Notes: generated by a model not told the origin, from the sequence alone. DNA of 64,000 nucleotides from Aquiluna sp. (GCA_018402685.1 JAGYIJ010000003.1:49968-113967); one strand, 5' to 3'. Shown: positions 10,602-64,000, counted from the stretch's first letter. A program made the numbers and translations.

Positions 10602-10608
10602 TGCTAAA

Positions 10609-13578: not shown

Positions 13579-13633
13579 GCGGCACCTCCTACAAATCTGT
13601 AATCAAGATGCTAAGGGGCGGTTGGTGTCAAAA

Positions 13634-13819
13634 CTAGGGCTGTTCGCCCAAGGCGTTAGAGCGCTTTGCGCGCTCTTCTGCCTCAATGCGCGCATAGGTG
13701 TTTCTTTCACCGCGATCCACCCGCAGAATCGCCCGCAGCATGATCCAGAAAATAACCCCAACCAATGCGGGCGGAATCAGCGAAATCAGAACATCGAGAG
13801 TTGCTTCCCAAAAAGTCAT
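13634..13819 (-). CDS. Hypothetical small single-TM protein
   Basis: 61 aa, between lysS and clpC. Confidence 0.4.
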   Translation of the reverse strand: MTFWEATLDVLISLIPPALVGVIFWIMLRAILRVDRGERNTYARIEAEERAKRSNALGEQP

Positions 13820-13826
13820 CTGCGCC

Positions 13827-17315: not shown

Positions 17316-17803
17316 TTTGCCACCACCACCGAATCAGATAGCTCCGCCACCAATTCGGAAACCCTGCCCCTGCCGGGCAGGGTTGCATCGGGGTCAATCT
17401 CAAGCCAGGGCACCAAAACGAAGCTACGCTCAAAGGCTCTGGGGTGAGGAACAATCAAGTTCTTGGTTTCAATCAGGTCATAGCCAAAGGTGATGATGTC
17501 GATATCCAAGGTTCTCGGAGCCCAACGCTGGAGCCTGATCCTGCCAAAGTCATTTTCGATTTCGTTCAAAACCCTAAGAAGCACCTTTGGCTTCAAACTC
17601 GTCTCCACCTGCACCACCGCGTTGAGATAACTCGGTTGCTCCGGGTCATAACCCGAGTCCGTCAGCGCAACAGATTCATAGATTGCAGATTGATTTACTA
17701 GCTTTATGCCCTTGGTCTTAGAAATCTGCCTGATTGCAGCTTCAAGAGTCTGTTTGCGCTCACCGAGGTTCGAACCCAGTGACAGGATTGCGAGACTCGT
17801 CAT
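17312..17803 (-). CDS. folK: 2-amino-4-hydroxy-6-hydroxymethyldihydropteridine diphosphokinase
   Basis: 163 aa. LSLGSNLG...RWAPRTLDIDI...PHP motifs. Confidence 0.9.
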   Translation of the reverse strand: MTSLAILSLGSNLGERKQTLEAAIRQISKTKGIKLVNQSAIYESVALTDSGYDPEQPSYLNAVVQVETSLKPKVLLRVLNEIENDFGRIRLQRWAPRTLDIDIITFGYDLIETKNLIVPHPRAFERSFVLVPWLEIDPDATLPGRGRVSELVAELSDSVVVAK

Positions 17804-18156
17804 CAGTCATCCCCCAGCGCACTAACAATGACATCGGAGAATCCTTGGGTGAGCGGTGCCGAGGGTTTATGCACCGACACCTCACACTCCACAATCTGAT
17901 CACCAAGACTCATCACCGCAGCTCTCAGCCTCAGGGCAAGAGCCTCCAAAAGATCGTTGCGCTCGGCATTGAAACTAGCTTCAATCAAGTTCGCAACATC
18001 GGCATATGACACCGTTTTTGCCAGATCGTCCTCGCCGGATGCCAAAACAACCAGCTTGCAATCGACCAAGAATTCTTGACCGTAGTCCTTCTCGTGCTGC
18101 AATACCCCGTGGTGGCCAAAGAGTCTTAGCCCCAGAATCTCAATTCGAAATCTCAC
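17803..18156 (-). CDS. folB: Dihydroneopterin aldolase
   Basis: Start trimmed to the GTG at 18156 (VRFRIEILGLRLFGHHGVLQHEKDYGQEF). GTGA overlap with the folP stop. Confidence 0.85.
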   Translation of the reverse strand: MRFRIEILGLRLFGHHGVLQHEKDYGQEFLVDCKLVVLASGEDDLAKTVSYADVANLIEASFNAERNDLLEALALRLRAAVMSLGDQIVECEVSVHKPSAPLTQGFSDVIVSALGDD

Positions 18157-18989
18157 CTGGCACTCTCCGATTGCTTTAGGGCTTCGACCACCTTTATGGC
18201 ATCGCTCGTGGCCTCGACGTTGTGGACTCGGATCCCCCAAAGCTTGCGTTGCAACAGCAGTGCCGTCAGCACTGCGGTTGCAACATCACGCCTGGGGTTT
18301 GAAACCGAAGCTGGGTCTGCCTGATTCAAGACCGAGGCTAGGAACCTCTTGCGAGATGCACCCACCAAGACTGGAAGCGAGAGCTTTTCTAGTTCATCAA
18401 GCCTGGCAACCAAATCCCAGTTCTGCTTGATGTCCTTTGCAAAACCTAGGCCGGGGTCAACAATGATGCGATCTCTTGCGATGCCGCTAGCCACCGCCAT
18501 CGAGACCTGCTCGGCGAGTTCGCCGACCACCTCTCTAGCGACATCCGAATAGCCAGTCAGAGTGTCCATCACTTCGGAGTGCCCGCGCCAGTGGCCAAGA
18601 ATGTATTTGCAGTCCAGCTTTGCAACAGCTGCGAAGATCTCTGGGTCCGACAAACCACCCGAAACGTCATTCACGATGTGTGCGCCGGCCTCAACGGCCA
18701 GACTCGCCGTTGCCGAGTTCATGGTGTCGATTGAGATCAGAACATCGAGCTCTGCGGCAATTGCTTTGATTACCGGGATTACTCGGTCCTGCTCCTGATC
18801 AAGGCTCACCCGCATTGCGCCAGGCCTGGTTGATTCGCCACCAACATCAATGATGTCTGCGCCTTGCGAAACTAAGAGCCTGGCTTGATTCAGGGCGGAT
18901 TCGACCTCAAGGAACTCGCCACCATCACTGAATGAATCCGGGGTGATGTTCAAAACCCCCATCAGTTTGGGTCGGGTCCACTGGTCCAT
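18153..18989 (-). CDS. folP: Dihydropteroate synthase
   Basis: Start trimmed to MDQWTRPKLMGVLNITPDSFSDGG at 18989. Also DIGGESTRPG. Confidence 0.9.
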   Translation of the reverse strand: MDQWTRPKLMGVLNITPDSFSDGGEFLEVESALNQARLLVSQGADIIDVGGESTRPGAMRVSLDQEQDRVIPVIKAIAAELDVLISIDTMNSATASLAVEAGAHIVNDVSGGLSDPEIFAAVAKLDCKYILGHWRGHSEVMDTLTGYSDVAREVVGELAEQVSMAVASGIARDRIIVDPGLGFAKDIKQNWDLVARLDELEKLSLPVLVGASRKRFLASVLNQADPASVSNPRRDVATAVLTALLLQRKLWGIRVHNVEATSDAIKVVEALKQSESAR

Positions 18990-18991
18990 GA

Positions 18992-19543
18992 CTACCTGTT
19001 TATCAAAGCCATCGCCTCTTGGCGATAGCTGGGTTCGGTGAAGACCCCTCTGGATGCGATAGTGACCGTGTTGACCTCGGGTTGCCTTGCTCCCCGAGAT
19101 GCCACGCACTGGTGCCTGGCCTCAATCACCACTAGCACTCCCTTGGGATCTAGGCCCTCAACAAGAGCATCGGCAACCTCTGAGGTCAAGCGCTCCTGCA
19201 ATTGCGGTCTCGATGCGATGATCTCTAGAACCTTTGCCAGTCTTCCCAAACCCGCTAACTGCGTGTTTGGTAGGTAGGCGATGTGAGCATTTCCGGTGAA
19301 GGGCAAGAGGTGATGCTCGCAAATTGAAACCAGTTCGATGTCTTTCAGGATCACCGTCTCGGAGCTATCTGCTGGAAAGGTTTCACCAATCGCACTCAGT
19401 GGGTCCACTCCAATGCCCTTGAAAAAGGAGGCGTAGGCCTCGGCAACCTTCTCGGGGGTGGATTTGAGCTCCTGGCGATTCGGATCCTCGCCGATGGCTA
19501 GAAGAATCTCGGTGACGGCATTGCGAATCCGATCAGCCTGCAT
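18992..19543 (-). CDS. folE: GTP cyclohydrolase I
   Basis: Start trimmed to [10 protein letters not shown] at 19543. CEHHLLPF and HQC motifs. Confidence 0.9.
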
Positions 19544-21538
19544 TTTTCTCACTGCTAGCCTCGGGGGCTTCGCCTTCGATTGCAGCTGGTTCTGGTTGCG
19601 GCTCTGGCTCTGGCAGTGCCTCGAGCTCTTTAACCTTGCGCTCGGGGACCGCGATTGGGCCCTTGGTGCCAACCGCACGCTTTTGGGACGACCTCCAGGT
19701 GCTGCGCTCAGCAACCTTCTTGACGCCCTTGAAGATGACTGCAATCTCGTCCTGGTTCAGGGTTTCTTTTTCTAGTAGCTCCTTGGCCAACTTGTCCAAA
19801 ATTCGGCGGTTAGTGATCAAGGCCTTGTGAGCCTCGTCCAACGCGCCATCCAAGATGGCACGGACTTCGTTGTCGACGACCTGAGCCATCTCGTTTGAGT
19901 AGTTTGAGTGGGTGGCAAGTTCTCTTCCAAGAAATGGCTCTGCGGTTCCCGAACCAAGCGAGATGGTGCCAACCTTGGCGCTCATGCCGTATTTGGTGAC
20001 CATGGTTCTGGCAATGTTGGTGGCCTTCTCAAAGTCGTTCGAGGCTCCGGTGGTTGGGTCTTTGAAGACAATCTCCTCTGCGATGCGACCACCCATGGCA
20101 TAGGCGATCTGGTCTAGGAGCTGATTACGTGTGATCGAGTAGCGATCTTCCATGGGCATCACCATGGTGTAGCCAAGGGCTCGGCCTCTGGGCAGGATGG
20201 TGATCTTGGTGACCGGGTCCGAGTAGTTCAGCGCTCCCGCAACTAGTGCGTGACCGGCCTCGTGATAGGCGGTGATGAGCCTTTCCTTGTCCTTCATGAT
20301 TGCGGACTTCTTTTGCGGTCCGCCAATCACGCGGTCAATGGCCTCATCGATAATCTCATCGGTGATTGCAGGTCTATTGAGTCTTGCTGCCAAAAGTGCG
20401 GACTCGTTCAGCACGTTTGCCAGATCTGCTCCGGTGAAACCGGGGGTCCTTCTAGCAACCAGGGCCAAGTCGATGTCGTCGGCGATTGGTTTGTTCTTGG
20501 CGTGGACCTTGAGAATCTGCTCGCGGCCCTTCAGATCTGGTGCGTTCACGCCAACCTGACGGTCAAAGCGACCCGGGCGCAATAGCGCAGGGTCTAACAC
20601 GTCTGGGCGGTTGGTGGCTGCAATCAAGATCACGTTGGTGCTGGTGTCAAAACCATCCATCTCAACCAAGAGCTGGTTCAGGGTTTGCTCACGCTCATCG
20701 TTACCGCCACCGATTCCGGTGCCGCGGTGACGACCAACCGCATCGATCTCGTCAACAAAGATGATTGCAGGGGCAGCCTGCTTGGCCTGCTCGAAGAGGT
20801 CTCTAACTCTTGAGGCACCAACTCCGACAAACATCTCCACAAAATCAGACCCGGAGATCGAGAAAAAGGCACGCCGGCTTCGCCGGCTACCGCCTTGGCG
20901 ATCAGAGTCTTGCCGGTTCCCGGAGGCCCATAGAGCAGCACTCCCCTTGGGATCTTGGCTCCCATGTCGACAAACTTCTTGGGGCTTTTGAGAAAGTCTT
21001 TAATCTCGGTGAGCTCTTCGAGAGCCTCTTCAATGCCTGCGACATCCTCAAAGGTTGTCGAAGAGGTCTCCTTGGTGACCATCTTTGCCTTGGACTTACC
21101 AAAGCTCATGACCCCTCTGCCGCCACCACCCATCGAACTCAACAGGAACCAGAACAGCGCCAAAATAATAATCAGTGGCAGAAGTGATCCAAGAATCGCC
21201 AACAGCCACGGGGTCGAGGGAACATCGTCTGTCCAGCCTTCGCTAATTGGCGAGCTGGCAACTATCTCGGCAACGGTGTCGGCCCTGCCAGAGACGAAGT
21301 AGAACTGGACGTATTCACCATTGCTGGAGTTGGCATTAATTAGCTGAACATCGACCCGCTGGTCACCGTCAATGACGGTGACGGACTTGGCCTGGCCGGT
21401 GCGAATGAGGTCGAGGCCCTCCTGGGTGTCGACCCGCTGGTACTGGTTTGTTGAAAGCAGTGAGCTACCGATCAGCACAACCGAGAGCGCAAGCGCAATC
21501 CAGAACCATGGACCCTTGAAAAACTTCTTCAACTTCAT
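19533..21538 (-). CDS. ftsH: ATP-dependent zinc metalloprotease FtsH, reading frame broken by a 1-nt frameshift
   Basis: Two overlapping ORFs (20678-21538 and 19533-20840). The N-part carries the TM segments and Walker A (GPPGTGKT). The C-part starts at [15 protein letters not shown] and contains HEAGH. Adding one T to the T5 run (plus-strand A5 at 20863-20867) restores [17 protein letters not shown]. Confidence 0.9.
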
Positions 21539-21571
21539 AATCTTTGGCTAAGCCTTTTCTCTGATAAGCGT

Positions 21572-22117
21572 TTAACTGTAGACGCTTGGTGCAAGCACTC
21601 CGACACCATCTAGCGAGCGATAACGCTCGTCGTAGTCAAGGCCATAGCCAACAACAAACTCGTTGGGGATATCAAACCCCACCCAACGGACAGCTATTTC
21701 AACCTTGGCAGCCTCTGGCTTTCGCAAAAGCGTCACTATCTCAACAGATGCTGCCCCGCGGGCCTTGAGATTGGCTGTGAGCCAGGAGAGTGTTAGCCCT
21801 GAATCGATGATGTCCTCAACAATCAGAACATCTCTGTCCTTCACGTCGGTGTCCAGATCCTTCAAGATTCGCACCACGCCAGAGGACATCGTTCCTGAGC
21901 CATAAGAGCTCACCGCCATCCAGTCCTGAGTGGTGTGAAGCTCCATTGCCCGAGCCAGGTCTGCCATGAATGGCACTGCACCTTTAAGAACGCCGACTAA
22001 AAGCAGGTTCTTGTCCTTGTAGTGCTCATCGATTTCGCCGGCAATTCCAGCGATTTTCTCGCGGATTTGCTCAGCTGTAACCAGCACTTTTGTAATGTCT
22101 GGGTGATTTAGCTGCAC
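21572..22117 (-). CDS. hpt: Hypoxanthine phosphoribosyltransferase
   Basis: 181 aa. PRPP motif VLIVEDIIDSGLT. Confidence 0.9.
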   Translation of the reverse strand: MQLNHPDITKVLVTAEQIREKIAGIAGEIDEHYKDKNLLLVGVLKGAVPFMADLARAMELHTTQDWMAVSSYGSGTMSSGVVRILKDLDTDVKDRDVLIVEDIIDSGLTLSWLTANLKARGAASVEIVTLLRKPEAAKVEIAVRWVGFDIPNEFVVGYGLDYDERYRSLDGVGVLAPSVYS

Positions 22118-22133
22118 TAGCGCTCCCGGGGTC

Positions 22134-23111
22134 TCAGGATGATTTTTGAAAGAGAAGCTGATCCCTCACCCGCTCTACTGTAATGCCAGAAAGACTCAAG
22201 GGTTTCTGCCCGTGCCAATTGGTAATTAGCTCGGCAATCCCAAGCACCTGAGAGCGTGAAATCGAGCCTGCACCGTGCTCCAAAGACATCATTTGCAACG
22301 CCTTATTTCTCAGTGCCGGATGAGCAGCCTCCAGCACCGAGACGCTATAGCCGTCATCTTTGGCGGCTTGGGCAATCAGCTCTTTGGCCTGAGAGGTCAA
22401 ATAGTCATCGACCTCGGAGGCCAAAGCGGCCGTTTTAGAAAGCGCTTCGCTAACCCCGGGGCCAAGCTCTGATTCGATTCTCTGCATCAGCTTTCTAATC
22501 CGAACCCGGGTGAAGGCATCGTCTTGGTTGTGTGGGTCTTCCCAGAACTCCACCCCGCTATCCAGGCAGGCCTGAGCCAAGTCCGCCTTTTGAATCCCAA
22601 GTAGTGGTCTGACCAAATGACCATCCACCAGCTTCATGCCGGCAATTGATTTCAAACCCGAACCTCGGGTCAGACCTAACAACACTGTCTCGGCCTGATC
22701 ATCGAGGTTGTGGCCGGTGAGAATAAAGTCTGCGGAGAGCTCTGACCGGTATTTTTCTAAAGCTGAATACCTTGCATCCCTTGCCTGAGCCTCTGGTCCC
22801 TTTTGTCCCTTTGGGACATCGATATCGATTACGACAGATTCGATTCCAAGTTCCAACAAACGCTCTTTCGCAGTCGCCGCAATCTCCTTGGAACCCTCTT
22901 GCAAGTTGTGGTTGATTACCGCGGCAAAGACCTTGATGCCAAGCTTTGGCAATTCAAAGCCTGCGGCTAGGGCAAGTGCCATCGAATCGGGGCCGCCCGA
23001 GACTGCCAACAGGACACTCTTGGTGCCTGCCAATTCGGGCGCCTCAAAGGTTTCTCTGATGGCCCTGCGGGCATCGGCAATCGCTGGAGTGAGCCTTGGT
23101 CTCATTGGCAT
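22134..23111 (-). CDS. tilS: tRNA(Ile)-lysidine synthase
   Basis: 325 aa. PP-loop motif AVSGGPDS. Confidence 0.9.
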   Translation of the reverse strand: MPMRPRLTPAIADARRAIRETFEAPELAGTKSVLLAVSGGPDSMALALAAGFELPKLGIKVFAAVINHNLQEGSKEIAATAKERLLELGIESVVIDIDVPKGQKGPEAQARDARYSALEKYRSELSADFILTGHNLDDQAETVLLGLTRGSGLKSIAGMKLVDGHLVRPLLGIQKADLAQACLDSGVEFWEDPHNQDDAFTRVRIRKLMQRIESELGPGVSEALSKTAALASEVDDYLTSQAKELIAQAAKDDGYSVSVLEAAHPALRNKALQMMSLEHGAGSISRSQVLGIAELITNWHGQKPLSLSGITVERVRDQLLFQKSS

Positions 23112-25353: not shown

Positions 25354-25426
25354 GGCCCCATCGTTTAGAGGCCTAGGACACCGCCCTTTCACGGCGGCAG
25401 CACGGGTTCGAATCCCGTTGGGGTCA
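25354..25426 (+). tRNA. tRNA-Glu (anticodon TTC)
   Basis: Hand-folded 73 nt: acceptor GGCCCCA/TGGGGTC, anticodon loop CTTTCAC, T-loop TTCGAAT. No encoded CCA. Confidence 0.85.
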
Positions 25427-25453
25427 CAAAGGCGATGTAGTTTGTACCACTCT

Positions 25454-25527
25454 GGCTCCGTAGCGCAGTTGGTTAGCGCGCCGCCCTGTCACGGCGGAGG
25501 TCGCGGGTTCAAGTCCCGTCGGAGTCG
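25454..25527 (+). tRNA. tRNA-Asp (anticodon GTC)
   Basis: Hand-folded 74 nt: acceptor GGCTCCG/CGGAGTC, anticodon loop CTGTCAC, T-loop TTCAAGT. Confidence 0.85.
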
Positions 25528-25570
25528 CTCAGTCCAGATTCTGGATCTGATGGAGAATTTAACCTCTCCA

Positions 25571-25643
25571 GGCTCTGTAGCTCAGTTGGTAGAGCGAACG
25601 ACTGAAAATCGTTAGGTCACCGGATCGACGCCGGTCGGAGCCA
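25571..25643 (+). tRNA. tRNA-Phe (anticodon GAA) with an atypical T-loop
   Basis: Hand-folded 73 nt: acceptor GGCTCTG/CGGAGCC, anticodon loop CTGAAAA, T-arm ACCGG-ATCGACG-CCGGT (A at position 54 instead of T). Confidence 0.8.
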
Positions 25644-25660
25644 CCCATAGGAGGCGGATA

Positions 25661-53369: not shown

Positions 53370-54066
53370 ATGAAGATTGGCGTAATCACATATCCAGGAA
53401 CCCTCGACGACCGCGATGCGCAGCGCGCGGTGCGCCTCGCTGGCGGCACGCCTGTCCCGCTTTGGCATGCAGACTCCGACATCAAAAAGGTCGATGCGGT
53501 TGTTCTCCCCGGTGGCTTTTCCTATGGCGATTACCTTGCGCTGCGGAGCCATCGCAGCTAAGGCTCCCGCCACCCAAGAGGTAATCAGGCTCGCGGCGCA
53601 GGGCCTGCCTGTTCTTGGCATCTGCAATGGCTTCCAGGTCCTGGTTGAATCACACCTCTTGCCAGGTGGACTAATTAGAAACGAACACCAGCACTTTATT
53701 TGCCGCGACCAGAAACTGCGCGTCGAGAACAACGAGACCGCATGGACCTCACTGTTCGAAAAAGACGAAGAGATCACCATCCCACTAAAGAACGGCGAGG
53801 GCGGCTACATCGCAAACCCTGACACTTTGAAGATGCTCGAGGAAGAGAACCGGGTGGTCTTTAGGTATTTGGATGTGAACCCCAATGGTTCGATGAACGA
53901 CATTGCCGGGCTCACCAATGAGCGAGGCAATGTCGTTGGCCTGATGCCTCACCCCGAGCACGCAGTGGAGCCAGGCTTCGGCCCTGACACCCCAATCGCA
54001 ACCAGATCAGGCATCGATGGCCTCAAGTTCTTCCAGTCGGTACTGAAGGTTTTGGTGAACAGCTAA
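53370..54066 (+). CDS. purQ: Phosphoribosylformylglycinamidine synthase glutaminase subunit PurQ, broken by a 1-nt frameshift
   Basis: ORFs 53370-53561 ([16 protein letters not shown]...[10 protein letters not shown]) and 53416-54066 (...[10 protein letters not shown]...GICNGFQ...HPEH). Removing the extra nt at about 53538 gives GDYLRCGAIA. Confidence 0.9.
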
Positions 54067-56362
54067 TGGAATCAAGGCGCCCAACAAACGTTGACACCGT
54101 GACTGATGCCAGCCAAGACCAGAGTAAGTCTCAGCCCTGGAAAGAGCTGGGTCTCAAACAAGACGAATACGAGAGCATCAGAGAGATTCTTGGTAGGAGA
54201 CCAACCTCTTCAGAGCTAGCGATGTATTCGGTGATGTGGTCCGAGCACTGCAGCTACAAATCATCGAAGATCTACCTCCGCCAGTTTGGCGAGAAGGTCA
54301 CCCCCGAGATGAAAAAAGACCTCATGGTCGGCATGGGTGAAAACGCAGGTGTTGTCGACATCGGCGAGGGCATGGCGGTGACCTTCAAGGTCGAAAGCCA
54401 CAACCACCCCAGCTACATCGAGCCCTTCCAGGGAGCAGCCACCGGTGTTGGTGGCATCGTTAGAGACATTTTGACCATGGGTGCAAGACCAATTGCCGTC
54501 ATGGACCAGCTGAGATTTGGAGCGCCATCAGACCCCGACACCGCAAGAGTCGTGCATGGCGTTGTTGACGGCATCTCCTTCTATGGCAACTGCCTCGGAC
54601 TTCCAAACATTGGTGGCGAGACTGTCTTTGACAAGGTCTACCAGGGCAACCCACTTGTGAATGCACTTGGCCGTTGGCGCCATGAAACACGAGGATCTAA
54701 AGCTTGCCAAGGCAACCAATGCCGGCGACCTAGTGATTCTCTTTGGTGCCAGGACCGGTGCCGACGGCATCGGTGGCGTGAGCGTGCTTGCCTCAGAAAC
54801 CTTTGCCGATGGCGGTCCAACCAAGCGCCCAGCTGTTCAGGTTGGTGACCCATTTGCCGAGAAGGTGCTAATTGAGTGCTGCCTAGAGCTCTTTGAAGCA
54901 GGCGTGGTTGCAGGTATTCAGGACCTTGGTGGTGCCGGTATCTCCTGCGCCACAAGTGAGCTTGCCTCTAACGGCGGTATGGGCATGAGGGTGCAGTTGC
55001 AAGATGTGCTACTTCAGAGACGACTCGCTAACCCCAGAAGAGATTCTGATGAGCGAGTCTCAAGAGCGCATGATGGCAATCGTTCCCAAAAAGCACCTCA
55101 AAGACTTTGAGAAGATCGTAAACAAGTGGGAGGTCGAGTACTCGGTACTTGGCGAGGTCATCGACGAGGACCGGTTGTATATCAACTGGGGCGATCAAGA
55201 GATCGTCAACGTACCCCCAAGAACCGTTGCCCACGATGGCCCGGTCTACACTCGCCCAGTTGAATACCCCAAATACCAAGACGCCCTAAACGCCGACAGC
55301 TCAGACCGACTTGAACGAGCAAAAGACGCAACCGAGCTGGCGACCCAGCTGTTGCAGATTCTTAGCTCTCCTAACCAGGCAGACAAGAGCTGGATCACCG
55401 CGCAGTATGACAAGTACGTCATGGGCAACACCGCGCTTTCGATGCCAGATGATGCCGGCATGGTCAGGGTGAATGAAGACTCTGGTCTGGGCATCACCAT
55501 TGCAACCGATGCCAACGGCAAGTACTGCCAGCTAAACCCCTATGAGGGCACCAAGCAGGCACTTGCCGAGGCCTATAGAAACGTTGCAGTAACTGGTGCA
55601 ACACCAAAGGCCGTCACCAACTGCCTCAACTTTGGTTCTCCTGAGAACCCAGAGGTGATGTGGCAGTTCAAGGAAGCCACCGCAGGCTTAGCCGATGGCT
55701 GCATGGAGCTGGGAATCCCGGTTACCGGCGGAAACGTCAGCTTCTACAACCAAACCGGTGATGTTGCCATCTACCCAACTCCGGTAGTTGGTGTCTTAGG
55801 TGTGATTGACGATGTTGCAAGACGCATCCCATCTGGTTGGCAAGACGATGGCAACAACATCTACCTGCTCGGCACCACCATGGATGAACTAGATGGCTCT
55901 GCCTGGGCAGAGACCATCCACTCTCACCTCGGTGGTCAGCCTCCAAGGGTTGATCTCCAAAAAGAGAAGCAGCTTGCAGAGCTACTGCAGGGTGCTGCAG
56001 TGCAAGGCTTGATTGAATCTGCCCACGATGTCTCAGAGGGCGGTCTCGCGGTTGCAGTTGCAGAGAGCGCACTGAGATTCAACGTTGGAGCCAGAATCTG
56101 GATCGAAGAGCTCAAAGACCGCGACCAGCTTGATGACACCGCAGCCCTGTTCTCTGAATCTCAAGGAAGAGTCATCGTGACCGTAGGCCGGGAAGACGAC
56201 GTGAAGTTCCAGGGTCTTTGTGAAGCAAGGGGCGTTCCAGTACTCCGCATCGGCGTCACCGATAAAGAGTCAGAGGCGTTGAACATTCAGGGCATTGCAG
56301 AGATTCCACTGAATGACGTTAGGTCTGGTTGGGCTAAGACTTTGACTGAGTTGTTTGGGTAA
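54066..56362 (+). CDS. purL: Phosphoribosylformylglycinamidine synthase subunit PurL, broken by two 1-nt frameshifts
   Basis: ORFs 54066-54848, 54661-55110 and 55004-56362. Junction 1 is an extra G at 54669/54670 (expected [16 protein letters not shown]). Junction 2 is near 55014 (expected ...[24 protein letters not shown]). Confidence 0.9.
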
Positions 56363-56390: not shown

Positions 56391-56410
56391 TTGAGGGGAT
56401 AGCACCTCAA
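56391..56410. promoter_or_regulatory. Palindromic box A, TTGAGGGGATAGCACCTCAA
   Basis: One of four copies of TTGAGGGG-N4-C(A/C)CCTCAA. 71 nt upstream of the paralog 1 ATG. Confidence 0.6.
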
Positions 56411-56481
56411 CCCAGGACCCTACAGGCCACTATTTAGCTCTCTTGCACCACACTTTATTGAAGCTTTAGGGAGTGTGAGTA

Positions 56482-57212
56482 ATGCGTTTAAGGCCCTTTA
56501 TGGGTGGGATGGTCCTAAGTGCCAGCCTTCCCATGATGGGCATCACCACTTCTCCCCCAGCTCCCAGCCACGCAGATGTCAGTATCTCTGTTAGCGCAGC
56601 TGAAAGCTGCGTTTGGTACATGGAGAATCTGCCATCGGTGATCAACATGCAGTCAGAGACTAAGTACAAGGGTGAGCCCTTGTTGGTCTCTGCAACGATT
56701 AGCCCGGCCCTTGGGTTTTCCGGTGACCCGGAAGTTCCCGGCTACTCCACGGCATGCAGCTTCTTCAACTCATCCTTCACGACCAAAAAGATGCAGGTAG
56801 CGATCGACAGTTCCCAGTTCGAGGCAACTTATGGTGGGACTACGGACGAAAGCCTTAGCTTTGGGTTGGACGAGAGACCCCTGTCAGTTGAAGTATCAAA
56901 CGTTGACCAAGAGTGCCAGAACGTTACTGGGATGCCACTAACGGTTCCAGCTAATTTTGGCTGGGGAAGAAACAAATCTGCTACCTCAACCGCTTTAGAT
57001 GTTGTTGCCTATTCGGATGTTCCGGATTGAAGAACTTCTTCCCCTCGGGCAATTCTGCAAAATGCTCACCAGAGCTGGAGTTTGAGGTTGAGATAAGCAG
57101 CGCACAATCAGGCCCCCCGGATGGAGCTGGTCAGACATACGTATTCACCGGTCCTAGCATTACCTTCAGCATGGAGAATGTTGCAAACACTTATGGCACC
57201 GTTGCAGAGTAG
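56482..57212 (+). CDS. Secreted four-Cys WxL-like surface protein, paralog 1 (broken by a 1-nt frameshift near 57026-57029)
   Basis: Sec signal peptide (..SHA/DV). ORFs 56482-57030 and 57027-57212 together align along the full length of paralog 2 (CVWYMENLP, CSFFNSS, KCSPELEFEVEI, GQTYVFTGPSITF). Confidence 0.7.
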
Positions 57213-57233
57213 TCACTCAGTGCCTTTAGAACT

Positions 57234-57614
57234 TTGGCCCCGGATCCCACAGCAGAATTGACATCGAGAACGCACTCCAACACCGAAGAAACCTTTAAAT
57301 TTTCTGTCGACTCAGCTGAGCGCATTTACGACGGATCCCTCTATGGAACAGCCGCGGAGTTCAGGTTCGTGCCCCAGAATAACCCGACCTGGTACTTTAC
57401 CCGGACGGCTTGGACAAACAACCCAAGAAAGAGCTTTGGATTTAACATAGAACGGACCTTTAGCAGAGATGGAAAGCCCTTTACGACTTGGGTTTCGGTC
57501 GACTATCGAATTGATTACCGCTACCCAGGAACGGATTGGGTCATCGGTGCAGCTAACCAAACACGGGAAAGTGACCCAAAAAGTGTCTATCGGGTAATGA
57601 ATGCTGAACCTTAG
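57234..57614 (+). CDS. Hypothetical protein, no signal peptide, TTG start only
   Basis: 126 aa, W/Y/F/R-rich, beta-strand-like composition. In the same frame as the paralog 1 C-part, separated by one TAG (57210-57212). No ATG or RBS seen. Confidence 0.3.
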   Translation: MAPDPTAELTSRTHSNTEETFKFSVDSAERIYDGSLYGTAAEFRFVPQNNPTWYFTRTAWTNNPRKSFGFNIERTFSRDGKPFTTWVSVDYRIDYRYPGTDWVIGAANQTRESDPKSVYRVMNAEP

Positions 57615-57691
57615 CAATTCCGCGCACGAGCGCAGCGCAAACCGCTTATTCGCAGGGTCTTGCAGCGCGCGTGCAGAGAAACAGATAATGC

Positions 57692-57711
57692 CTGAGGGGA
57701 TAGCACCTCAA
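57692..57711. promoter_or_regulatory. Palindromic box B, CTGAGGGGATAGCACCTCAA
   Basis: 19/20 identical to box A. 70 nt upstream of the paralog 2 ATG. Confidence 0.6.
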
Positions 57712-57781
57712 AAAAGCTGACCTCTGATGACCAAGCCCCGATCCAGAGCGATAATTAAGCCATCTCAAGAGAGTGTGAGCT

Positions 57782-58495
57782 ATGCATTTAAGACCTTTGG
57801 CAGGTGTGGTGGCGATAGTTGCCAGCTTTCAAATGCTGGGCCTTGCGATTTCTACCCCTCCCAGTCACGCCAATGTCAGCATCTCGGTGAGTGCTGCTGA
57901 GAGCTGCATTTGGTACCTTGAAAATGTCCCCACGGGAATAAACCTCGAATCTGAAACCAAGTACAAAGGCCAACCAATCAGTATTTCCGGAACTATCAGT
58001 GCAGCAATTGGTTTCTCCGGAAATGCTGACGTGCCGGACTACGCCACTCAATGCAGCTTCTTCAACTCATCCCTGACCACAAAGAAACTCACCGTTTCGC
58101 TTGTTGGAAGTGAGTTCAGAGCAACCTACAACGGCACAATAGACGACAGCATGGGCTTTGGTGTGGATGAGCGTCCACTCGTTCTTGAAACCTCGAGTGG
58201 CGCTGCAAACTGCCCTCAGGTTGAGGGCCTTCCCGCTACAGTTCAAGCAAGCTGGAAATGGGGACCGATTTCGAACATAGATGACCTCGAACGCTCATTT
58301 GATCTGGTTACGTATTCGAGTACCCCAAATGTTGGTGAAAAGAATCACTTTCTTTCCGGGGAGGCTGCGAAGTGCGCACCAGAAGTAGAGCTCTCGGTCG
58401 AGATTCGAAGCACACAACAAGGCCCTCCAGAAGGTGCCGGTCTTACATACCTCTTTGAAGGTCCGAGTCTGACCTTCGCCCTAAACGACAACTAA
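57782..58495 (+). CDS. Secreted four-Cys WxL-like surface protein, paralog 2
   Basis: 237 aa. Signal peptide (..SHA/NV). N-terminal CIWYLENVP (W-x-L...P) and C-terminal TYLFEGPSLTF (Y-x-F..GP) motifs. Four conserved Cys. Confidence 0.8.
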   Translation: MHLRPLAGVVAIVASFQMLGLAISTPPSHANVSISVSAAESCIWYLENVPTGINLESETKYKGQPISISGTISAAIGFSGNADVPDYATQCSFFNSSLTTKKLTVSLVGSEFRATYNGTIDDSMGFGVDERPLVLETSSGAANCPQVEGLPATVQASWKWGPISNIDDLERSFDLVTYSSTPNVGEKNHFLSGEAAKCAPEVELSVEIRSTQQGPPEGAGLTYLFEGPSLTFALNDN

Positions 58496-58560
58496 GTTGC
58501 CTTCCCTACATGCGCCCCAATCGCTCTGTTCCTGAGATCCAAAACAGGCCCGCGTAAACC

Positions 58561-58580
58561 GTGAGGGGTTAGCACCTCAA
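58561..58580. promoter_or_regulatory. Palindromic box C, GTGAGGGGTTAGCACCTCAA
   Basis: 18/20 identical to box A. 86 nt upstream of the paralog 3 ATG. Confidence 0.6.
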
Positions 58581-58624
58581 ATCTCAGAAATCCCCTAGGT
58601 GAAGCGGATACGGGCTGTTTGTAT

Positions 58625-58650
58625 CGTGTTAACACGAACCGTGTTAACAC
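58625..58650. promoter_or_regulatory. Two tandem palindromes (C)GTGTTAACAC(G), 15 bp apart
   Basis: GTGTTAACAC at 58626-58635 and 58641-58650, 16-40 nt upstream of the paralog 3 ATG. Absent upstream of paralogs 1 and 2. Confidence 0.45.
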
Positions 58651-58666
58651 CAACTAAGGAGACCTA

Positions 58667-59395
58667 ATGGAAAAGAAGAATTTGGCAGGTGCGCTAATCG
58701 CGTCTCTGTCCCTACCGCTTATGTTGGCAACGTTTAGCGTGCCACTAGCGAATGCCGCGGGGGTTTCATCCTCAGTAGCAACCGTCGACAACTGCAAATG
58801 GGTTATGGCGAACATCCCGGGTTCTTTCGCTATGACTTCCTCTGGGGACGCAAAGTACGACGGTGACGCGCTCACTGTCTCCGCTTCCCTATTAGGGCCA
58901 ACCCTGGGTCTCAGTGGTTCCACCTCAACCGTCGCAACTTCTGCGGAAAGCAGCACTGAGTGCAGCTTCTACAACAGAGTTCTCAATGCCTCACTGTCTG
59001 CAACGCTGGACACCGTGTCTTTCGTAGCAAGCTACGAGAAGGCTGACGGCACCACTGAATCCGACATCGCCATGAACTTCTCTCTTGAAGCTGGCTTACC
59101 ACTGGTGATCACCCCAGACATTTCAGCTTGTACTGTTCCGTCGGGTTGGACATCATCAACAATCAGCTTCACTGCTTCCTCATCTGAGCAGTTGATTGCA
59201 TTCACTAGCAGTACGGACGGCTATGATGCAGGCGATGCACCCCGCTGTGATCCTCCAGGAACCATTGAAGTGCAGATCCCGCAGCGCACCTCAGTGCCTG
59301 AAGGAGCGGGTAGCGACTACTCGTTCACTGGTCCAACCATCACATTCTCGAGCACTCCTAGCAACAACTACGACTACGTTGCCGGAACCGAGTAA
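58667..59395 (+). CDS. Secreted four-Cys WxL-like surface protein, paralog 3 (divergent)
   Basis: 242 aa. Signal peptide (..ANA/AG). CKWVMANIP, CSFYN, RCDPPGTIEVQI, DYSFTGPTITF. Same Cys pattern as paralogs 1 and 2. Confidence 0.8.
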   Translation: MEKKNLAGALIASLSLPLMLATFSVPLANAAGVSSSVATVDNCKWVMANIPGSFAMTSSGDAKYDGDALTVSASLLGPTLGLSGSTSTVATSAESSTECSFYNRVLNASLSATLDTVSFVASYEKADGTTESDIAMNFSLEAGLPLVITPDISACTVPSGWTSSTISFTASSSEQLIAFTSSTDGYDAGDAPRCDPPGTIEVQIPQRTSVPEGAGSDYSFTGPTITFSSTPSNNYDYVAGTE

Positions 59396-59416
59396 CTAAA
59401 CAGCGAATCAGAAACC

Positions 59417-59455
59417 CCTACCCCAGGGCAGCCCAATCAGCTGCCCTGGGGTAGG
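59417..59455 (+). promoter_or_regulatory. Perfect 16-bp stem / 7-nt loop hairpin between paralog 3 and the anchor gene
   Basis: CCTACCCCAGGGCAGC-CCAATCA-GCTGCCCTGGGGTAGG. No T-tract follows. The last stem base is the G of the GTG start at 59455. Confidence 0.55.
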
Positions 59456-61008
59456 TGTTAGTAAGGAAAATCATCAGGCGCCTACTGGCCGCAGCACTAG
59501 CGATTGTCGCAATGACCTTCGCGATTACACCTGTTGCGTCAGCGAGCGGCCTAGGTATTTTCATTTCATTTGGTCAATCCGGGGAGACGGACGCCGAAGC
59601 CAGTGGACGTATCTGGGGTGGTGGTGAGGCTGGCACCAGCTTTACCCGCACGATGGTGATCGAGAGCCTTAGCTCCGACACCGATCAAGCAATCACTTTT
59701 GAGATCAATGACCAGGTCACTGAAAACGAAACATCGTTCATAGATTTCAGCACCCCGAGCCGAATCACAGATTGGGTACTCTTTGAACCTGCTGCGCCAG
59801 TATTGAGGCCCGGTGAAAGAGTTGAGGTCACAATAACCTTCAACATCCCTCCCGGCACCAACGACGGCGCCTTCAACGCAAACATAAGGACCTTCAGCTC
59901 GGCGGCAGCCGAGGCTGACATGGCAGATTCAGATGCCGGAACCCAGGTTGTAATCGGGACGCGTCTTGCGATTGACGCCAAGGTCTGGCTGGGTGTTGGA
60001 GACGCCCTCGCATTGGCCCCGGTCTTTGACATCATCGGTGTAGACGGAGCGTTGATTGACGAGGATAAGTTCGTCAGAGTCTTCTTTGAAAACACCGGGA
60101 TATCACCAGTGCAGCCCTCAGGTCGAATGCAGCTGAGTGATCCGAACTTTGTCGACAGGGTCTTTGAGCCAGTTGACTTCTCAGTGCCTGAACTGCAGGG
60201 TGGCGAGATCCAATTTGTCGACATCCCGGTCCCGGCAGATCTAGAGGATGGTTTCTTCAGGGTATTCGTCACGGCCCAATCCGGCGAGGTCAGAATCACC
60301 AGACTGTTTGAAGCCAGCCTGGTCTTTGATGATCCAAACAAGCTTGCGATATCAGACTTAGCTATTCGCATAGCCGGCTTTGTAATTGCAGCCCTGGGGC
60401 TCGTGTTTGGCGTGAGGCTGATTCGAGGCAGTGGCCAAAAGGTAGCCAAAGAACCTAAAGAGCCTCGAGGTTCAAAACCAGCGAGAGCAAAGGCAATCAA
60501 ACTGCCTAGGAAGCTGCTCAAACTTAGAAGTGAGCCTGAGGCAACGAAGGCGGAAGATCCGATTGAGGCCATCCAGGCGGCAATAGCCAGGATGGAAAAG
60601 CAGTTCCAGGAACTCAACCAGGAGATTGCCACCACCAAGCCAACTCCTAGACGCAAGCCCACACCAAGACCAAAGGCTGCCCCAAAGCCAAAGACCTCTG
60701 CAGCACCTTCGGCCAAAAAGCCTGCATCGGCTCAGCCTGCCAAAAAGGCCCCGTCTAAAGAGGCGGTCTCAAGGGCTGCGGTTCAAAAGACCACTGCCGC
60801 CAGGCCAGCCTCAAGGCCCGCAGCCGCCAAGGCTGCCCCAGCTAGGCAAAAGCCCGCCCCGAGAAAGACATCGCCAGCGCCGGAGTCCAAGAAGGTTGCT
60901 CCTGCCCAAAAGCCGCCCGTGAAAAAGACTCCGGCTAAGCAAGCTGTTGCAAAGGCAGCGGTTCAAAAGACCACCGCCGGCAAAGCCGGCAGTGAGAAAG
61001 AAAACTAA
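59455..61008 (+). CDS. DUF916/DUF3324-like (WxL-cluster CscA-like) membrane-anchored surface protein with a 196-aa Lys/Pro/Ala-rich C-terminal tail
   Basis: 517 aa. Signal peptide (VASA/SG), about 270-aa ectodomain (..RITDWVLFEPAAPVLRPGERVEVTITFNIPPGTNDGAFNANI), one TM around aa 301-321, then a K/P/A-rich tail with an internal repeat AV(S/A)(R/K)AAVQKTTA. Family assigned from memory. Confidence 0.7.
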   Translation: MLVRKIIRRLLAAALAIVAMTFAITPVASASGLGIFISFGQSGETDAEASGRIWGGGEAGTSFTRTMVIESLSSDTDQAITFEINDQVTENETSFIDFSTPSRITDWVLFEPAAPVLRPGERVEVTITFNIPPGTNDGAFNANIRTFSSAAAEADMADSDAGTQVVIGTRLAIDAKVWLGVGDALALAPVFDIIGVDGALIDEDKFVRVFFENTGISPVQPSGRMQLSDPNFVDRVFEPVDFSVPELQGGEIQFVDIPVPADLEDGFFRVFVTAQSGEVRITRLFEASLVFDDPNKLAISDLAIRIAGFVIAALGLVFGVRLIRGSGQKVAKEPKEPRGSKPARAKAIKLPRKLLKLRSEPEATKAEDPIEAIQAAIARMEKQFQELNQEIATTKPTPRRKPTPRPKAAPKPKTSAAPSAKKPASAQPAKKAPSKEAVSRAAVQKTTAARPASRPAAAKAAPARQKPAPRKTSPAPESKKVAPAQKPPVKKTPAKQAVAKAAVQKTTAGKAGSEKEN

Positions 61009-62652
61009 CTAGGAGAGCTTCACCCGCAACAGTGAGCCTGAGCCGGTATTACTGAGCTCCCAATCATTTGATACCGAGTCAAAGTATGTCGAACCTAACC
61101 CCGGGACTCCGTCTCTTGGACCGGTGCCGTCATCTGCGACGGTGATCTCGGGGCCCTCCCCAATTGTCACTGAGATCCTCGATGCGAAGCCGTGGCGAAC
61201 GCCATTGGCGATTCCCTCGTTGATAACTTCCCTGACTTCCTCGAGCTGCTTTTGGCTAAGGGGTGTTGGGCTAATGGCAAAGGTGATCTGGGCCATGCCT
61301 CCCCAGTCTTTCTCCAGCCGCATGATCACCTCTTCGAGGCTGGTGACCTGCTGCCTGCCAAACTCTGCCAAGGACTCGTTTAGAACTCTTTCTATTTGGT
61401 CAATTTCCTCGCTGAGATCTGTATTATCCATTCGTGATTCGATGCGAGCGGCAACACCATTGAGCTTGGATTGCATGTGACCGTGCAGGAACTGAGCCAA
61501 TTGGCGATCCCGGAGTGCCAACTCTCGAATCCTTCTGAGCTCCTCAAGATCTGATTCATCTAAGAACTTCTCGAACTCTGTTTCCACCTTCTGCCCAAGC
61601 TCCAAAAACGCCTTTGCCATGCCGATACACATGGTGAGCTGGAAAAGCCATACGAGATTGGCAATCATGAAGCCAACATCATCACCAAGACTGCGGCCAT
61701 CGGAGAGGAAGGTTCCAAGCGCCACCTGAGAAAAGGCGATCAGAACCATCGAAGTGAGATAGACGCCCAGGGCACCCGCGGTGGTTTTGACTGGTATTGC
61801 TTTTGCCAATAACAGCCCTGCGATCAACAGCACTGACCTGACTAGCTGAATAAGCAAACCATCTTCGATACCAAACACTCTGACATTTGCAGTTAGAGAG
61901 GTGAGGGCCCAAAGTGGCACAACCCAGCCCACCGAATAGACGTGTCCTCGAATCGCAATCTTGGCCATTTGGGTGAGCTTGAAGCTGGGAAACTTCAAAG
62001 ACTCCCTGCGCCATATCTCCTGGCTCAGTGGACGTAGATCCGAATTCACAATGTCACGCAGCTCACCAACCAGCCCCTGCGAATCTAGCGATTTACCCGA
62101 CTGGGCAATCCTTTGCTTGGCATCTGTAACGAACCTCACCAAAGTTGCCGGGTAGCTCTCGCCACCAACACTGGCAACCTTCTCGCTAATCAGCGCCTCG
62201 CGCTGCTGAGCGCAGCGATAGCGCAGTGAACCGACCAGTGCAACCGCCGGCACCACAATCAAACCGCCAATAGCCGAAAACCCCAGACGCGCTATGAATT
62301 CGGGCAGGCTGTCGAAGGCATACCCAAAAAACACCAGTCCCACCCAGGTGAGAAAACCTTTGAGCACCCCGGCAGCAGCACCCCCAACCACTAGCGCTCC
62401 AAGGCTTATGCTCACCTCACGCTCTTGGGTCTTGAGGTATCGATCAAGAGCCACGAGAATGACGAAGATTGCGGCAACCGCTCCAATGTTGGCAAAGACA
62501 AGACCCAGCGTCCTACCGGTGTCTTCAAAACTGGTGGCTGTCAGGAAAGAGATTAGGACAATCGAAACGCCCAACAGGGCGAAGATCGAGTAGTCAAAAG
62601 CTCCAGAGGCAGCAAATCTTTGCCCGAAGAAGTCGCTAAGCCTCTTGAGCAT
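61009..62652 (-). CDS. Polytopic sensor histidine kinase (HisKA_3/NarX-DesK type)
   Basis: 547 aa. About 9-10 TM with no recognisable sensor domain. H-box RQLAQFLHGHMQSKL, N-box EGIANGVRHG, G-boxes DDGTGP and GLGS. Confidence 0.8.
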   Translation of the reverse strand: MLKRLSDFFGQRFAASGAFDYSIFALLGVSIVLISFLTATSFEDTGRTLGLVFANIGAVAAIFVILVALDRYLKTQEREVSISLGALVVGGAAAGVLKGFLTWVGLVFFGYAFDSLPEFIARLGFSAIGGLIVVPAVALVGSLRYRCAQQREALISEKVASVGGESYPATLVRFVTDAKQRIAQSGKSLDSQGLVGELRDIVNSDLRPLSQEIWRRESLKFPSFKLTQMAKIAIRGHVYSVGWVVPLWALTSLTANVRVFGIEDGLLIQLVRSVLLIAGLLLAKAIPVKTTAGALGVYLTSMVLIAFSQVALGTFLSDGRSLGDDVGFMIANLVWLFQLTMCIGMAKAFLELGQKVETEFEKFLDESDLEELRRIRELALRDRQLAQFLHGHMQSKLNGVAARIESRMDNTDLSEEIDQIERVLNESLAEFGRQQVTSLEEVIMRLEKDWGGMAQITFAISPTPLSQKQLEEVREVINEGIANGVRHGFASRISVTIGEGPEITVADDGTGPRDGVPGLGSTYFDSVSNDWELSNTGSGSLLRVKLS

Positions 62653-63283
62653 CTTGCATAACCCCCGTGGAGCGGAAGTAAACCCTGGCGATGTGAACCC
62701 TTTGGTTCACTGAGTTGCTATTGACAATCCCCAATGACTTAGCAACTCTCGAGATGGTTAGCTCGACCGACTTTTCCTTCACAAATCTTCTCTTTGCAAT
62801 CTCCGAGTTGGAAAGCCCTTCGGCGACCAACCGCAAAGTCTCTATTTGAACATCACTCAGCTTGCCAAAAGCTGAATTGTTCTCAGCCTCGCTGTTACCC
62901 ATGGCGGCGATAGCAGCATCGTTTACAGCACCTTTCAGCATCGTTAGGTTCTGCACGGATTTCTTAGTCAAATACACCGTGCCCTTCGGCACGGCAGGCA
63001 ACGAAGGGCCCAGGAGTCTTGGATCCTCAAAAGAGGTCAACACCACTATCCCTATCTTTGGATTCACCCTGCGGAGCTCCTTGGAAACATCTAAACCAGT
63101 GGCTCCCTTGCCCAAATGGAGATCTAGCATCGCGACCTGGGGCTTCACAGCTATTGCTCGCTCTAAAGCTTTACCGGGCTCGGCCTCCTCGGCGACAACG
63201 TCAAAACCAAAGTGCCTGAGGGCTCCGACAATGCTCAGTCTGGTGAAGGGGTCATCCTCCAAAACCAGCACTCTTAGCGACAT
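62636..63283 (-). CDS. NarL/FixJ (LuxR)-family response regulator
   Basis: 215 aa. REC (VLVLEDDP, AMLDLHL, VLTS) plus a LuxR HTH (LSDVQIETLRLVAEGLSNSEIAKRR). 17-nt overlap with the kinase gene. Confidence 0.9.
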   Translation of the reverse strand: MSLRVLVLEDDPFTRLSIVGALRHFGFDVVAEEAEPGKALERAIAVKPQVAMLDLHLGKGATGLDVSKELRRVNPKIGIVVLTSFEDPRLLGPSLPAVPKGTVYLTKKSVQNLTMLKGAVNDAAIAAMGNSEAENNSAFGKLSDVQIETLRLVAEGLSNSEIAKRRFVKEKSVELTISRVAKSLGIVNSNSVNQRVHIARVYFRSTGVMQDAQEA

Positions 63284-63446
63284 GTCTCAAGTCTCTCCCG
63301 TTGGGAGATAAAAAGACAGCTGATTGGATTTTCTGGGCAATCTCTTGAGGGGTTAGCCCCTCAAGCTCTGCCATAGGCCGCCAAGAATTAAAGCTGACAA
63401 AATCAAGTTCACCAGAATCGATGAGGTCTTGAATTGTTTGTTCCAT
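63252..63446 (-). CDS. Hypothetical 64-aa ORF (doubtful)
   Basis: Overlaps the regulator start by 32 nt and contains palindromic box D. No family recognised. Confidence 0.25.
   Translation of the reverse strand: MEQTIQDLIDSGELDFVSFNSWRPMAELEGLTPQEIAQKIQSAVFLSPNGRDLRHVAKSAGFGG
63345..63364. promoter_or_regulatory. Palindromic box D, TTGAGGGGTTAGCCCCTCAA (perfect 8-bp arms)
   Basis: 61 nt upstream of the response-regulator ATG at 63283. 18/20 identical to box C. Confidence 0.6.
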
Positions 63447-63449
63447 GGA

Positions 63450-64000
63450 CTACTCCCGGAGGTTGACCAAAGGTCTCGATTGGACGGTTCGAATAAACCC
63501 TGATTCTGCCTCCTTCCAATCTTTTGCGCTTAAGTTATTCACAGCCACCTCTTTGCCAATGATTTCGGTTGCTCTGAGCGACAAATCAAACGCCCCAGAC
63601 CGGTCAAAGTCCCCGACCAAAAGAACGTCAATGTCTCCAGGATCGACTCCTGGCACACCCTGATAACGCTCAGCCCAAGACCCATAGATAAAGGCTTCTT
63701 GAACACCGGCAAGCTCAGAAAACAAATCCCTTAGGACCTCAGCTGGGCCAAAGCTGTAGAGGACAATCTCGGAAAGAGCCGCAAACAACTGGTGATCCTG
63801 ATTGGCTCTCACGAGCTGCATGTTTCCAGCTGGACGAACAGTTACGAACTGAACCTGCTCGAGCCTGCGAATCTCGCGCAAAGCTGTAGGCAAAGATGTC
63901 CCAACCCGATTAGCCAAATCCGATACGGAGTACTCGAGATCTTTGTTGACCAGCAGAATCGCCAATATCCTTCCTTGCACATCACTGCGGAGGATTGGCA
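63450..64000 (-). CDS. Winged-helix (ArsR-like) plus MNT-type nucleotidyltransferase fusion protein (5' end probably beyond the window)
   Basis: wHTH (YSVSDLANRVGTSLPTALREIRRLEQ) and an NTase motif (IYGSWAERY...GDIDVLLVGD). The frame stays open upstream of the GTG at 63980 to the window edge (..PILRSDVQGRILAILL). Confidence 0.65.
   Translation of the reverse strand, partial: PILRSDVQGRILAILLVNKDLEYSVSDLANRVGTSLPTALREIRRLEQVQFVTVRPAGNMQLVRANQDHQLFAALSEIVLYSFGPAEVLRDLFSELAGVQEAFIYGSWAERYQGVPGVDPGDIDVLLVGDFDRSGAFDLSLRATEIIGKEVAVNNLSAKDWKEAESGFIRTVQSRPLVNLRE

Follow-up and report, generated by a model that had tools for sequence, protein, structure and literature searches.

A 20-bp palindromic box shared by a NarL/FixJ-type two-component operon and neighboring surface-protein genes of Aquiluna sp. 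is a candidate operator

Operators of the LiaRS/VraSR/ComA type are inverted repeats with a 4-bp spacer, and the Firmicute ComA box reads TTGCGG-N4-CCGCAA. Boxes for DosR (also called DevR), the regulator of the DosR/DevR-DosS system of Mycobacterium tuberculosis, occur at several nearby promoters and also at DosR's own operon. Here we describe a 20-bp palindromic box that occurs four times in a 64,000-nucleotide (nt) stretch of Aquiluna sp. DNA (GCA_018402685.1, JAGYIJ010000003.1:49968-113967; below, the window), upstream of three genes for secreted paralogs and of an operon that encodes a response regulator and a histidine kinase. The DosR operator is likewise a 20-bp palindrome, TTSGGGACTWWAGTCCCSAA (PMC2275270). 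A further system to be compared is the WxL cluster of surface proteins, defined as at least one WxLIP, the membrane anchor, and at least two WxL proteins within four genes; such clusters have been reported almost exclusively from Lactobacillales and Bacillales (PMC10599100). Judging from comparative sequence evidence, we consider it quite likely that the adjacent NarL/FixJ-type regulator uses the box as its DNA operator and would thereby control its own operon and a small set of cell-surface genes.

The box has the consensus nTGAGGGG-nTAn-CCCCTCAn, with an invariant core GGGG-N4-CCCC that in relatives reads GGGG-nTAn-CCCC. An earlier note on this DNA had located the four boxes and given their distances from the start codons (71, 70 and 86 nt for paralogs 1 to 3, and 61 nt for the regulator operon), and both the coordinates and the distances are correct (Table 1). 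The pattern written in that note fits two of the four sites exactly, while boxes 2 and 3 start with C and G, and the identity between copies is 17 to 19 of 20 positions in pairwise comparison rather than the 18 to 20 that it gave. Its statement that the window holds no further full copy stands, because only these four boxes match the perfect palindrome in the 64 kb even when three mismatches are allowed. With up to two mismatches, 0.14 chance matches are expected in the window, and none of the shuffled sequences reached the observed count. We derived a weight matrix from 31 distinct boxes, and with it the four boxes scored 27.4 to 32.3 bits. The runner-up site in the 64 kb scored 11.3 bits, the same as the mean of the shuffle maxima. 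We also scanned 185,579 species genomes, a collection without the source lineage, with GAGGGGWTASCMCCTCAA. This returned 78 stretches from unrelated taxa, about the number expected by chance. Every matching 8-kb stretch contained a single match, and none of the 78 encodes the proteins of the locus.

Members of the paralog family are rare and come from metagenomes alone (18 clusters); the family was used to find syntenic relatives. This gave syntenic contigs of about seven close lineages, which we denote by handles such as L011. For distant relatives, kinase homologs were traced down to 22% identity and their loci were fetched, for about 12 related lineages overall, all metagenomic. Gene order is fixed across the close lineages, and the box is kept at all four positions in 7 of 7. 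The paralogs of these lineages are 50 to 87% identical, the kinases 60 to 77% and the regulators 85 to 90%, which makes the regulator the most conserved protein of the locus. In ungapped alignments anchored on the box, column conservation was 0.92 to 0.96 in the box, 0.49 to 0.55 in the upstream 40 nt, which represent the background, and 0.6 to 0.8 downstream. At box 1, the values for seven lineages were 0.96 in the box versus 0.54 in the upstream 40 nt.

Box 4 is covered by a 64-codon open reading frame (ORF) on the minus strand (63252-63446). This ORF is not conserved, and box 4 is therefore effectively intergenic. In L011, the closest relative, an in-frame TAG immediately before the box interrupts the equivalent ORF. 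The ORF also has no similarity to the HEPN-like gene found at the equivalent place in L093. Given these two results, we rejected it as a real gene.

The box was found 25 to 80 nt upstream of the gene for the regulator, which combines a REC receiver domain with a GerE-type helix-turn-helix (HTH), in every related locus except L106. It is still present there in L093 to L105 and in L107, where kinase identity is 27 to 51%, and the association of box and regulator persists to about 50% regulator identity and 27 to 33% kinase identity. Many distant loci have a second box upstream of a neighboring target gene, and such target boxes were found where the target is a paralog or a protein of about 1,000 amino acids (aa). 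In L093, L099/L100 and L096, the target is a single paralog with the membrane-protein gene directly after it, and one box lies ahead of both; the 277-aa target in L096 is a probable remote member of the paralog family. The target in L094 (2723-5974) and L095 (2570-5551) is a protein of about 1,000 aa with a weak GLUG motif. In L102 (2319-4847), L103 and L105 (3162-5312), it is an operon led by a collagen-triple-helix-repeat protein and divergent from the box region. Kinase, regulator and box seem to act together as a switch of general use that governs surface or extracellular proteins.

The related DNA, 266 kb in all, contains 23 matches to GGGG-N4-CCCC versus 4 expected. Of these matches, 21 sit at regulator or target promoters, and the remaining two are not box-like. 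The outer positions of the box drift, with GAGGGG becoming TGGGG in L107 and GGGGGG in L105. The recognition helix KSVE(L/T)TISR is retained wherever GAGGGG is retained, and L105, L106 and L107 have a different helix together with different outer box positions. Over the 64-kb window and the 266 kb of related DNA, the motif is restricted to promoters and is co-inherited with the regulator. The earlier note had proposed an autoregulated regulon of the local LuxR-type regulator, and this proposal is supported by a box that accompanies the two-component system across deep divergence, both at the regulator gene and at genes for secreted proteins.

The regulator contains a receiver domain (PF00072, 5.5e-10), whose D54 aligns with the acceptor Asp of DevR in the 3c3w alignment, and an HTH (PF00196, 1.2e-6, exceeding the gathering score) that aligns with the DosR C-terminal domain (1zlj, 1zlk). 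Its best solved relative in the PDB is DevR/DosR itself (3c3w, E = 1.5e-13), followed by VraR, EvgA and DesR. The genes of kinase and regulator share 17 nt. No Pfam model, including HisKA_3 and HATPase_c, matches the kinase of the window; HATPase_c is recorded for a few of its homologs, and the ATP-binding domain of DevS gave a weak match (E = 0.019). In 20 homologs, the kinase motifs H390 (in FLHGHMQxKLN), N483, D507xGxG and G518xG520 (N, G1 and G2 boxes) are invariant. The length is strikingly constant, being 547 aa in most of 55 clusters. Between two blocks of transmembrane (TM) helices lies a loop of about 90 aa with invariant R207, P208, S210 and W214 and no Pfam model. This loop may be the sensing element.

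We suggest the following circuit. The co-transcribed polytopic kinase would phosphorylate the regulator, and the regulator dimer would bind the box with one HTH per half-site. Because box 4 lies upstream of the regulator gene, its occupation would make the operon autoregulated. With one box per secreted paralog, each paralog would have a regulated promoter to itself. Expression of the WxLIP-like membrane protein encoded after paralog 3 would probably depend on partial read-through at a conserved hairpin that follows paralog 3.

The spacing of promoter-like elements downstream of the boxes bears on the mode of control. Each of the three paralog promoters has a conserved hexamer exactly 38 nt downstream of its box: CACACT at paralog 1, GATACT or GATAAT at paralog 2, and TTGACT or TTGTAT at paralog 3. 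The hexamers end in ACT, and in two of the window copies in AAT or TAT. Of the two sigma-70-like matches of the region, one is on the plus strand, and this match, ATGACC-17-GATAAT, belongs to paralog 2. Candidate -10 elements nearer the boxes (+6 to +23) were set aside; because their offsets vary among the four promoters, we propose only the +39 to +44 block for the paralogs. If the hexamers are -10 elements, the box center would be near -60, the classical position of an upstream activator. At the regulator promoter, the conserved sequences suggest a start about 30 nt after box 4, which would place the box near -40, two helical turns closer. We considered an extracytoplasmic function (ECF) sigma factor for the GCTGTCTTT block at this promoter and dropped it when a matching -35 was not found. 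Because the box would lie near -60 at the paralogs and near -40 at the regulator promoter, we lean toward the regulator activating transcription from the boxes. Separate transcription of each paralog, as put forward in the earlier note, is plausible, and we infer it from the box and the -10-like hexamer 38 nt downstream that each paralog has.

Two other features were seen in the region upstream of paralog 3. An inverted repeat, ATCC(C)...(G)GGAT, lies at 58590-58609, 10 nt downstream of box 3, and its inner pairs covary between lineages (C-G, T-A, T-G, A-T). An RNA element would be unusual at this place, which has box 3 on one side and the proposed -10 on the other. The leader of paralog 3 also contains a 15-nt tandem duplication, cgtgttaacacgaac / cgtgttaacacc, at 58625-58651, which is not in the relatives. 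Because of this duplication, the leader is 86 nt long versus about 71 nt.

Variation among the 31 distinct boxes has the character expected of a DNA site. Positions 3-8, 10-11, 13 and 15-19 hold 1.45 to 2.0 bits of information each, the central TA is conserved at 1.79 bits, and positions 9 and 12 are free. The imperfect arm, which has an A/T substitution, is on the promoter-proximal side in most copies and on the distal side in L093 and L003. Some regulator genes are preceded by tandem boxes, which are 22 bp apart in L102 and L103 and 44 bp apart in L099 and L104. Such arm flipping and tandem spacing are properties of a symmetric protein-binding DNA site. This signature points to an operator of a dimeric HTH protein rather than to a structural RNA, a terminator or a repeat element.

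Several points weigh against an operator. Every box lies downstream of a co-oriented gene, and the boxes could fall within transcripts. Box 4 folds strongly as RNA (-22 kcal/mol, z = -5.4), and a secondary terminator role is possible for it. At the paralog promoters, the promoter-proximal arm is conserved better than the distal arm, which is unexpected for a purely symmetric site. The -10 assignment at the regulator promoter is weak, as the AAT-ending hexamer lies at +17/18 with a 1-nt register shift between lineages. Finally, the related loci share ancestry, so the conservation counts are not independent samples and part of the conservation is inherited. The position of all copies between co-oriented genes, the inverted repeat itself, the fold of box 4 and a weak minus-strand terminator match at box 2 would fit an RNA hairpin, acting either as a stabilizer or processing site in the 5' untranslated region (5'-UTR) or as an intrinsic terminator or insulator between tandem genes. 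We consider such a hairpin very improbable, because it is the sequence that is conserved rather than the pairing. In the 31 boxes, pairing is 78.6%, identical to the shuffle value of 78.6%, and covariation is 0.077 versus 0.069 in shuffles, a value matched or exceeded in 153 of 500 shuffles. The two outer pairs of the would-be stem fail to form in 21 and 11 copies, respectively, pair 7-14 is persistently mismatched as G.A or U.C (12 of 31), and the loop UA is conserved. The RNA folds of boxes 1 to 3 do not surpass those of shuffled sequences (z from -0.9 to -1.5), and the box matches no Rfam family. The terminator scan found no plus-strand terminator at boxes 1 to 3 and only the weak minus-strand match at box 2. 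On the coding strand, the boxes are not followed by a T-run (boxes 1 to 3 continue with CCCAGG, AAAAAG and ATCTCA), and an intrinsic terminator was rejected on these grounds. By contrast, the stem of the hairpin at 59417-59455 in the same locus varies in sequence among six relatives through compensatory substitutions, and RNA covariation is therefore detectable in this data set. Thus, the 5'-UTR hairpin that the earlier note offered as its alternative is disfavored.

If the box is a DNA operator, another protein might be its ligand, either the winged-HTH protein encoded at 63450-63980 or an unlinked factor. The 176-aa HTH protein adjoins box 4, and its relatives lie near the two-component system in L011, L093/L100 and L094. 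However, it is absent from the sequenced neighborhood in L001, L003, L004, L007, L095, L096, L102, L105 and L107, which keep the box. The response regulator is the only DNA-binding protein common to every locus, and a 20-bp palindrome of the 8-4-8 form suits dimers of the GerE type such as DosR, which leaves a different ligand only a slight chance. The regulator might instead bind the box and repress, or activate the paralogs while repressing its own promoter. Box 4 ends about 17 nt before the -10-like hexamer and would cover the -35 region, which fits repression or class II activation. Still, the paralog promoters have no good -35, and their box lies about 15 nt upstream of the -35 place, as is typical of activator-dependent promoters; moreover, positive autoregulation is usual for NarL-type envelope and stress systems (DosR, LiaR, VraR). 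We consider repression rather unlikely, though at the regulator's own promoter it is a possibility. A palindrome that recurs at the borders of tandem paralogs could also be a dispersed repeat (of the repetitive extragenic palindromic or miniature inverted-repeat transposable element kind, REP/MITE-like) or a recombination site flanking gene cassettes. This is extremely unlikely, since the four copies in 64 kb all lie within one 7-kb locus, the species genomes hold a single match per matching 8-kb stretch at about the chance number, synteny is fixed in all lineages, and the box is found at promoters even in distant loci that have a single target.

Table 1. Boxes, candidate promoter elements and genes of the locus, with positions counted from the first letter of the window
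Feature	Position	Strand	Remarks
Box 1, upstream of paralog 1	56391..56410	+	TTGAGGGGATAGCACCTCAA
Box 2, upstream of paralog 2	57692..57711	+	CTGAGGGGATAGCACCTCAA
Box 3, upstream of paralog 3	58561..58580	+	GTGAGGGGTTAGCACCTCAA; GAGGGGTTAGCACCTCAA invariant in 7/7 lineages
Box 4, 61 nt upstream of regulator start codon	63345..63364	-	TTGAGGGGTTAGCCCCTCAA; perfect palindrome
Candidate -10 hexamer CACACT, paralog 1	56449..56454	+	+39 to +44 from box end; conserved block (0.95) in all lineages; putative
Candidate sigma-70-like promoter ATGACC-17-GATAAT, paralog 2	57727..57755	+	Predicted by consensus promoter scan
Candidate -10 hexamer TTGTAT, paralog 3	58619..58624	+	+39 to +44; TTGACT in relatives; conserved block GGCTGTTTGACTC; putative
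TCCAAT (-10-like, +17 to +22) and invariant GCTGTCTTT (+25 to +33) below box 4	63312..63328	-	Conserved; putative promoter role
Paralog 1, secreted	56482..57614	+	371-380 aa in relatives; split into three ORFs in the window
Paralog 2, 237 aa	57782..58495	+	Signal peptide, four conserved Cys, all-beta prediction
Paralog 3, 242 aa	58667..59395	+	27-30% identical to paralogs 1 and 2
Stem-loop, 16-bp perfect stem, terminator-/attenuator-like	59417..59455	+	Kept in 6 relatives with compensatory changes; followed by TTTGGTGTT
Membrane protein, 517 aa, WxLIP-like	59455..61008	+	Signal peptide, two Ig-like domains, TM helix, Lys/Pro/Ala-rich tail
Polytopic histidine kinase, 547 aa, HisKA_3-like	61009..62652	-	Invariant kinase motifs
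Response regulator, REC + GerE/LuxR-type HTH	62636..63283	-	Pfam PF00072, PF00196

The locus lies downstream of purQ/purL and consists of the three secreted paralogs and the membrane protein on the plus strand, then the kinase and the regulator on the minus strand. Members of the paralog family have a signal peptide and four conserved cysteines, and the AlphaFold model, with a predicted local distance difference test score (pLDDT) of 70, is all-beta. We found no Pfam or NCBIfam match for the paralogs, distant family members included, and the model has no fold match in the PDB (TM-score of at most 0.24, the WxL chain of 9i25 included). Among 1.84 billion proteins, the family is represented by about 96, and it is without a Pfam model. 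The WxL Pfam profile does not match the paralogs, which carry a single conserved W-x-L/M motif, CxWYLEN. Compared with L014 and L011, paralog 1 has lost 7 nt at about 57027.

The gene of the 517-aa membrane protein has no box of its own. The stem-loop at 59417-59455 lies between paralog 3 and this gene and overlaps the GTG start of the latter; it probably works as a terminator or attenuator and so determines how much paralog is made relative to membrane protein. The AlphaFold model of the ectodomain (pLDDT 76) has two immunoglobulin (Ig)-like domains ahead of the TM helix. Its best PDB matches are the Enterococcus faecium WxLIP structures 9i25_C and 9i1y (E ~1e-12, prob 1.00), followed by PapD-like chaperones. 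The protein has no Pfam match, and DUF916, DUF3324 and WxL are absent even at E <= 10. It has in addition a histone-H1-like, Lys/Pro/Ala-rich cytoplasmic tail, whose length varies, the relatives being 385 to 517 aa long. We infer that the output of the locus is a cell-surface protein complex.

Elsewhere in the window, purQ/purL (53416-56362) and ftsH (18153-21538), like paralog 1 (56482-57614), are split into overlapping ORFs. The frameshifts affect essential genes and therefore suggest assembly errors rather than gene decay. The 176-aa protein at 63450-63980 combines an ArsR/MarR-like winged HTH with a C-terminal nucleotidyltransferase-like motif, GDIDVLLVGD. Its relatives adjoin the two-component system in the lineages already listed, and in L093 a HEPN-like gene comes next. 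The 176-aa protein and the HEPN-like gene may form a toxin-antitoxin-type pair of the MNT/HEPN kind. Genes at 8176-23111 are ordered radA ... clpC-lysS-panC-folK-folB-ftsH-tilS, and a tRNA Glu-Asp-Phe cluster lies at 25354-25645. Both this gene order and this tRNA cluster are typical of Actinomycetota and suggest an actinobacterial source. The G+C content of the genome is about 54%.

For a lineage seen so far in metagenomes alone, the locus provides a circuit amenable to experiment, with a probable operator, a regulator, a proposed autoregulatory loop and three to four target promoters. The operator could be used to scan future complete genomes and so delimit the regulon, and it might serve as part of an orthogonal promoter/regulator pair. 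A regulated surface assembly with a WxLIP-like anchor outside Firmicutes would, if true, widen the known range of such complexes. An autoregulated NarL-type system with a palindromic box follows textbook logic, and in this respect the circuit is of an ordinary bacterial kind in an uncultured lineage.

Among described systems, DosR/DevR-DosS is the closest, as DosR is the nearest solved relative of the regulator and the ATP-binding domain of the kinase is weakly DevS-like. Both boxes are 20-bp palindromes that start with TT and end with AA, with a run of G in each half-site and a central T/A, and both systems have boxes at several nearby promoters. However, only 13 of 20 positions agree between the box of the locus and TTSGGGACTWWAGTCCCSAA, and the core GAGGGG-nTAn-CCCCTC differs from the DosR core SGGGACT-WW-AGTCCCS. 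Moreover, where DosR contacts bases with K182 and N183, the regulator of the locus has E and L/T. The partner kinase differs as well, being a polytopic membrane protein of about 547 aa without GAF domains, and the targets are secreted or surface proteins, in contrast to the dormancy genes of DosR. The locus resembles LiaRS and VraSR in that one operon encodes a membrane kinase, here a probable HisKA_3-type one, and a REC-GerE regulator, and in that the regulon is small and adjacent. Among the PDB matches of the regulator, VraR ranks second. Unlike LiaRS, VraSR and ComA, it has no LiaF-like partner, its many-TM kinase has the conserved loop of about 90 aa, and its half-site is different.

On the target side, the 517-aa protein resembles a WxLIP in its predicted architecture, namely, signal peptide, two Ig-like domains and C-terminal TM helix. 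Its gene clusters with genes for small secreted proteins of about 240 aa, as that of WxLIP does with those of WxL proteins (PMC10599100). However, no DUF916, DUF3324 or WxL profile matches, and the paralog fold is unmatched; for the failure of these profiles, we claim a functional resemblance to WxL clusters and not membership. The locus also differs from WxL clusters in its actinobacterial-looking host, the extra basic cytoplasmic tail and the dedicated two-component system. Tentatively, then, the locus might be an actinobacterial counterpart of the WxL/WxLIP system, in which a family of disulfide-bonded beta-proteins of about 240 aa would replace WxL, under a dedicated kinase, a DosR-like regulator and a GGGG-nTAn-CCCC switch. 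In the relatives, the same switch would also act on collagen-like and approximately 1,000-aa surface proteins. The motif is undescribed, as are the kinase and target families, but the logic of the circuit is standard, like that of DosRS, LiaRS and VraSR.

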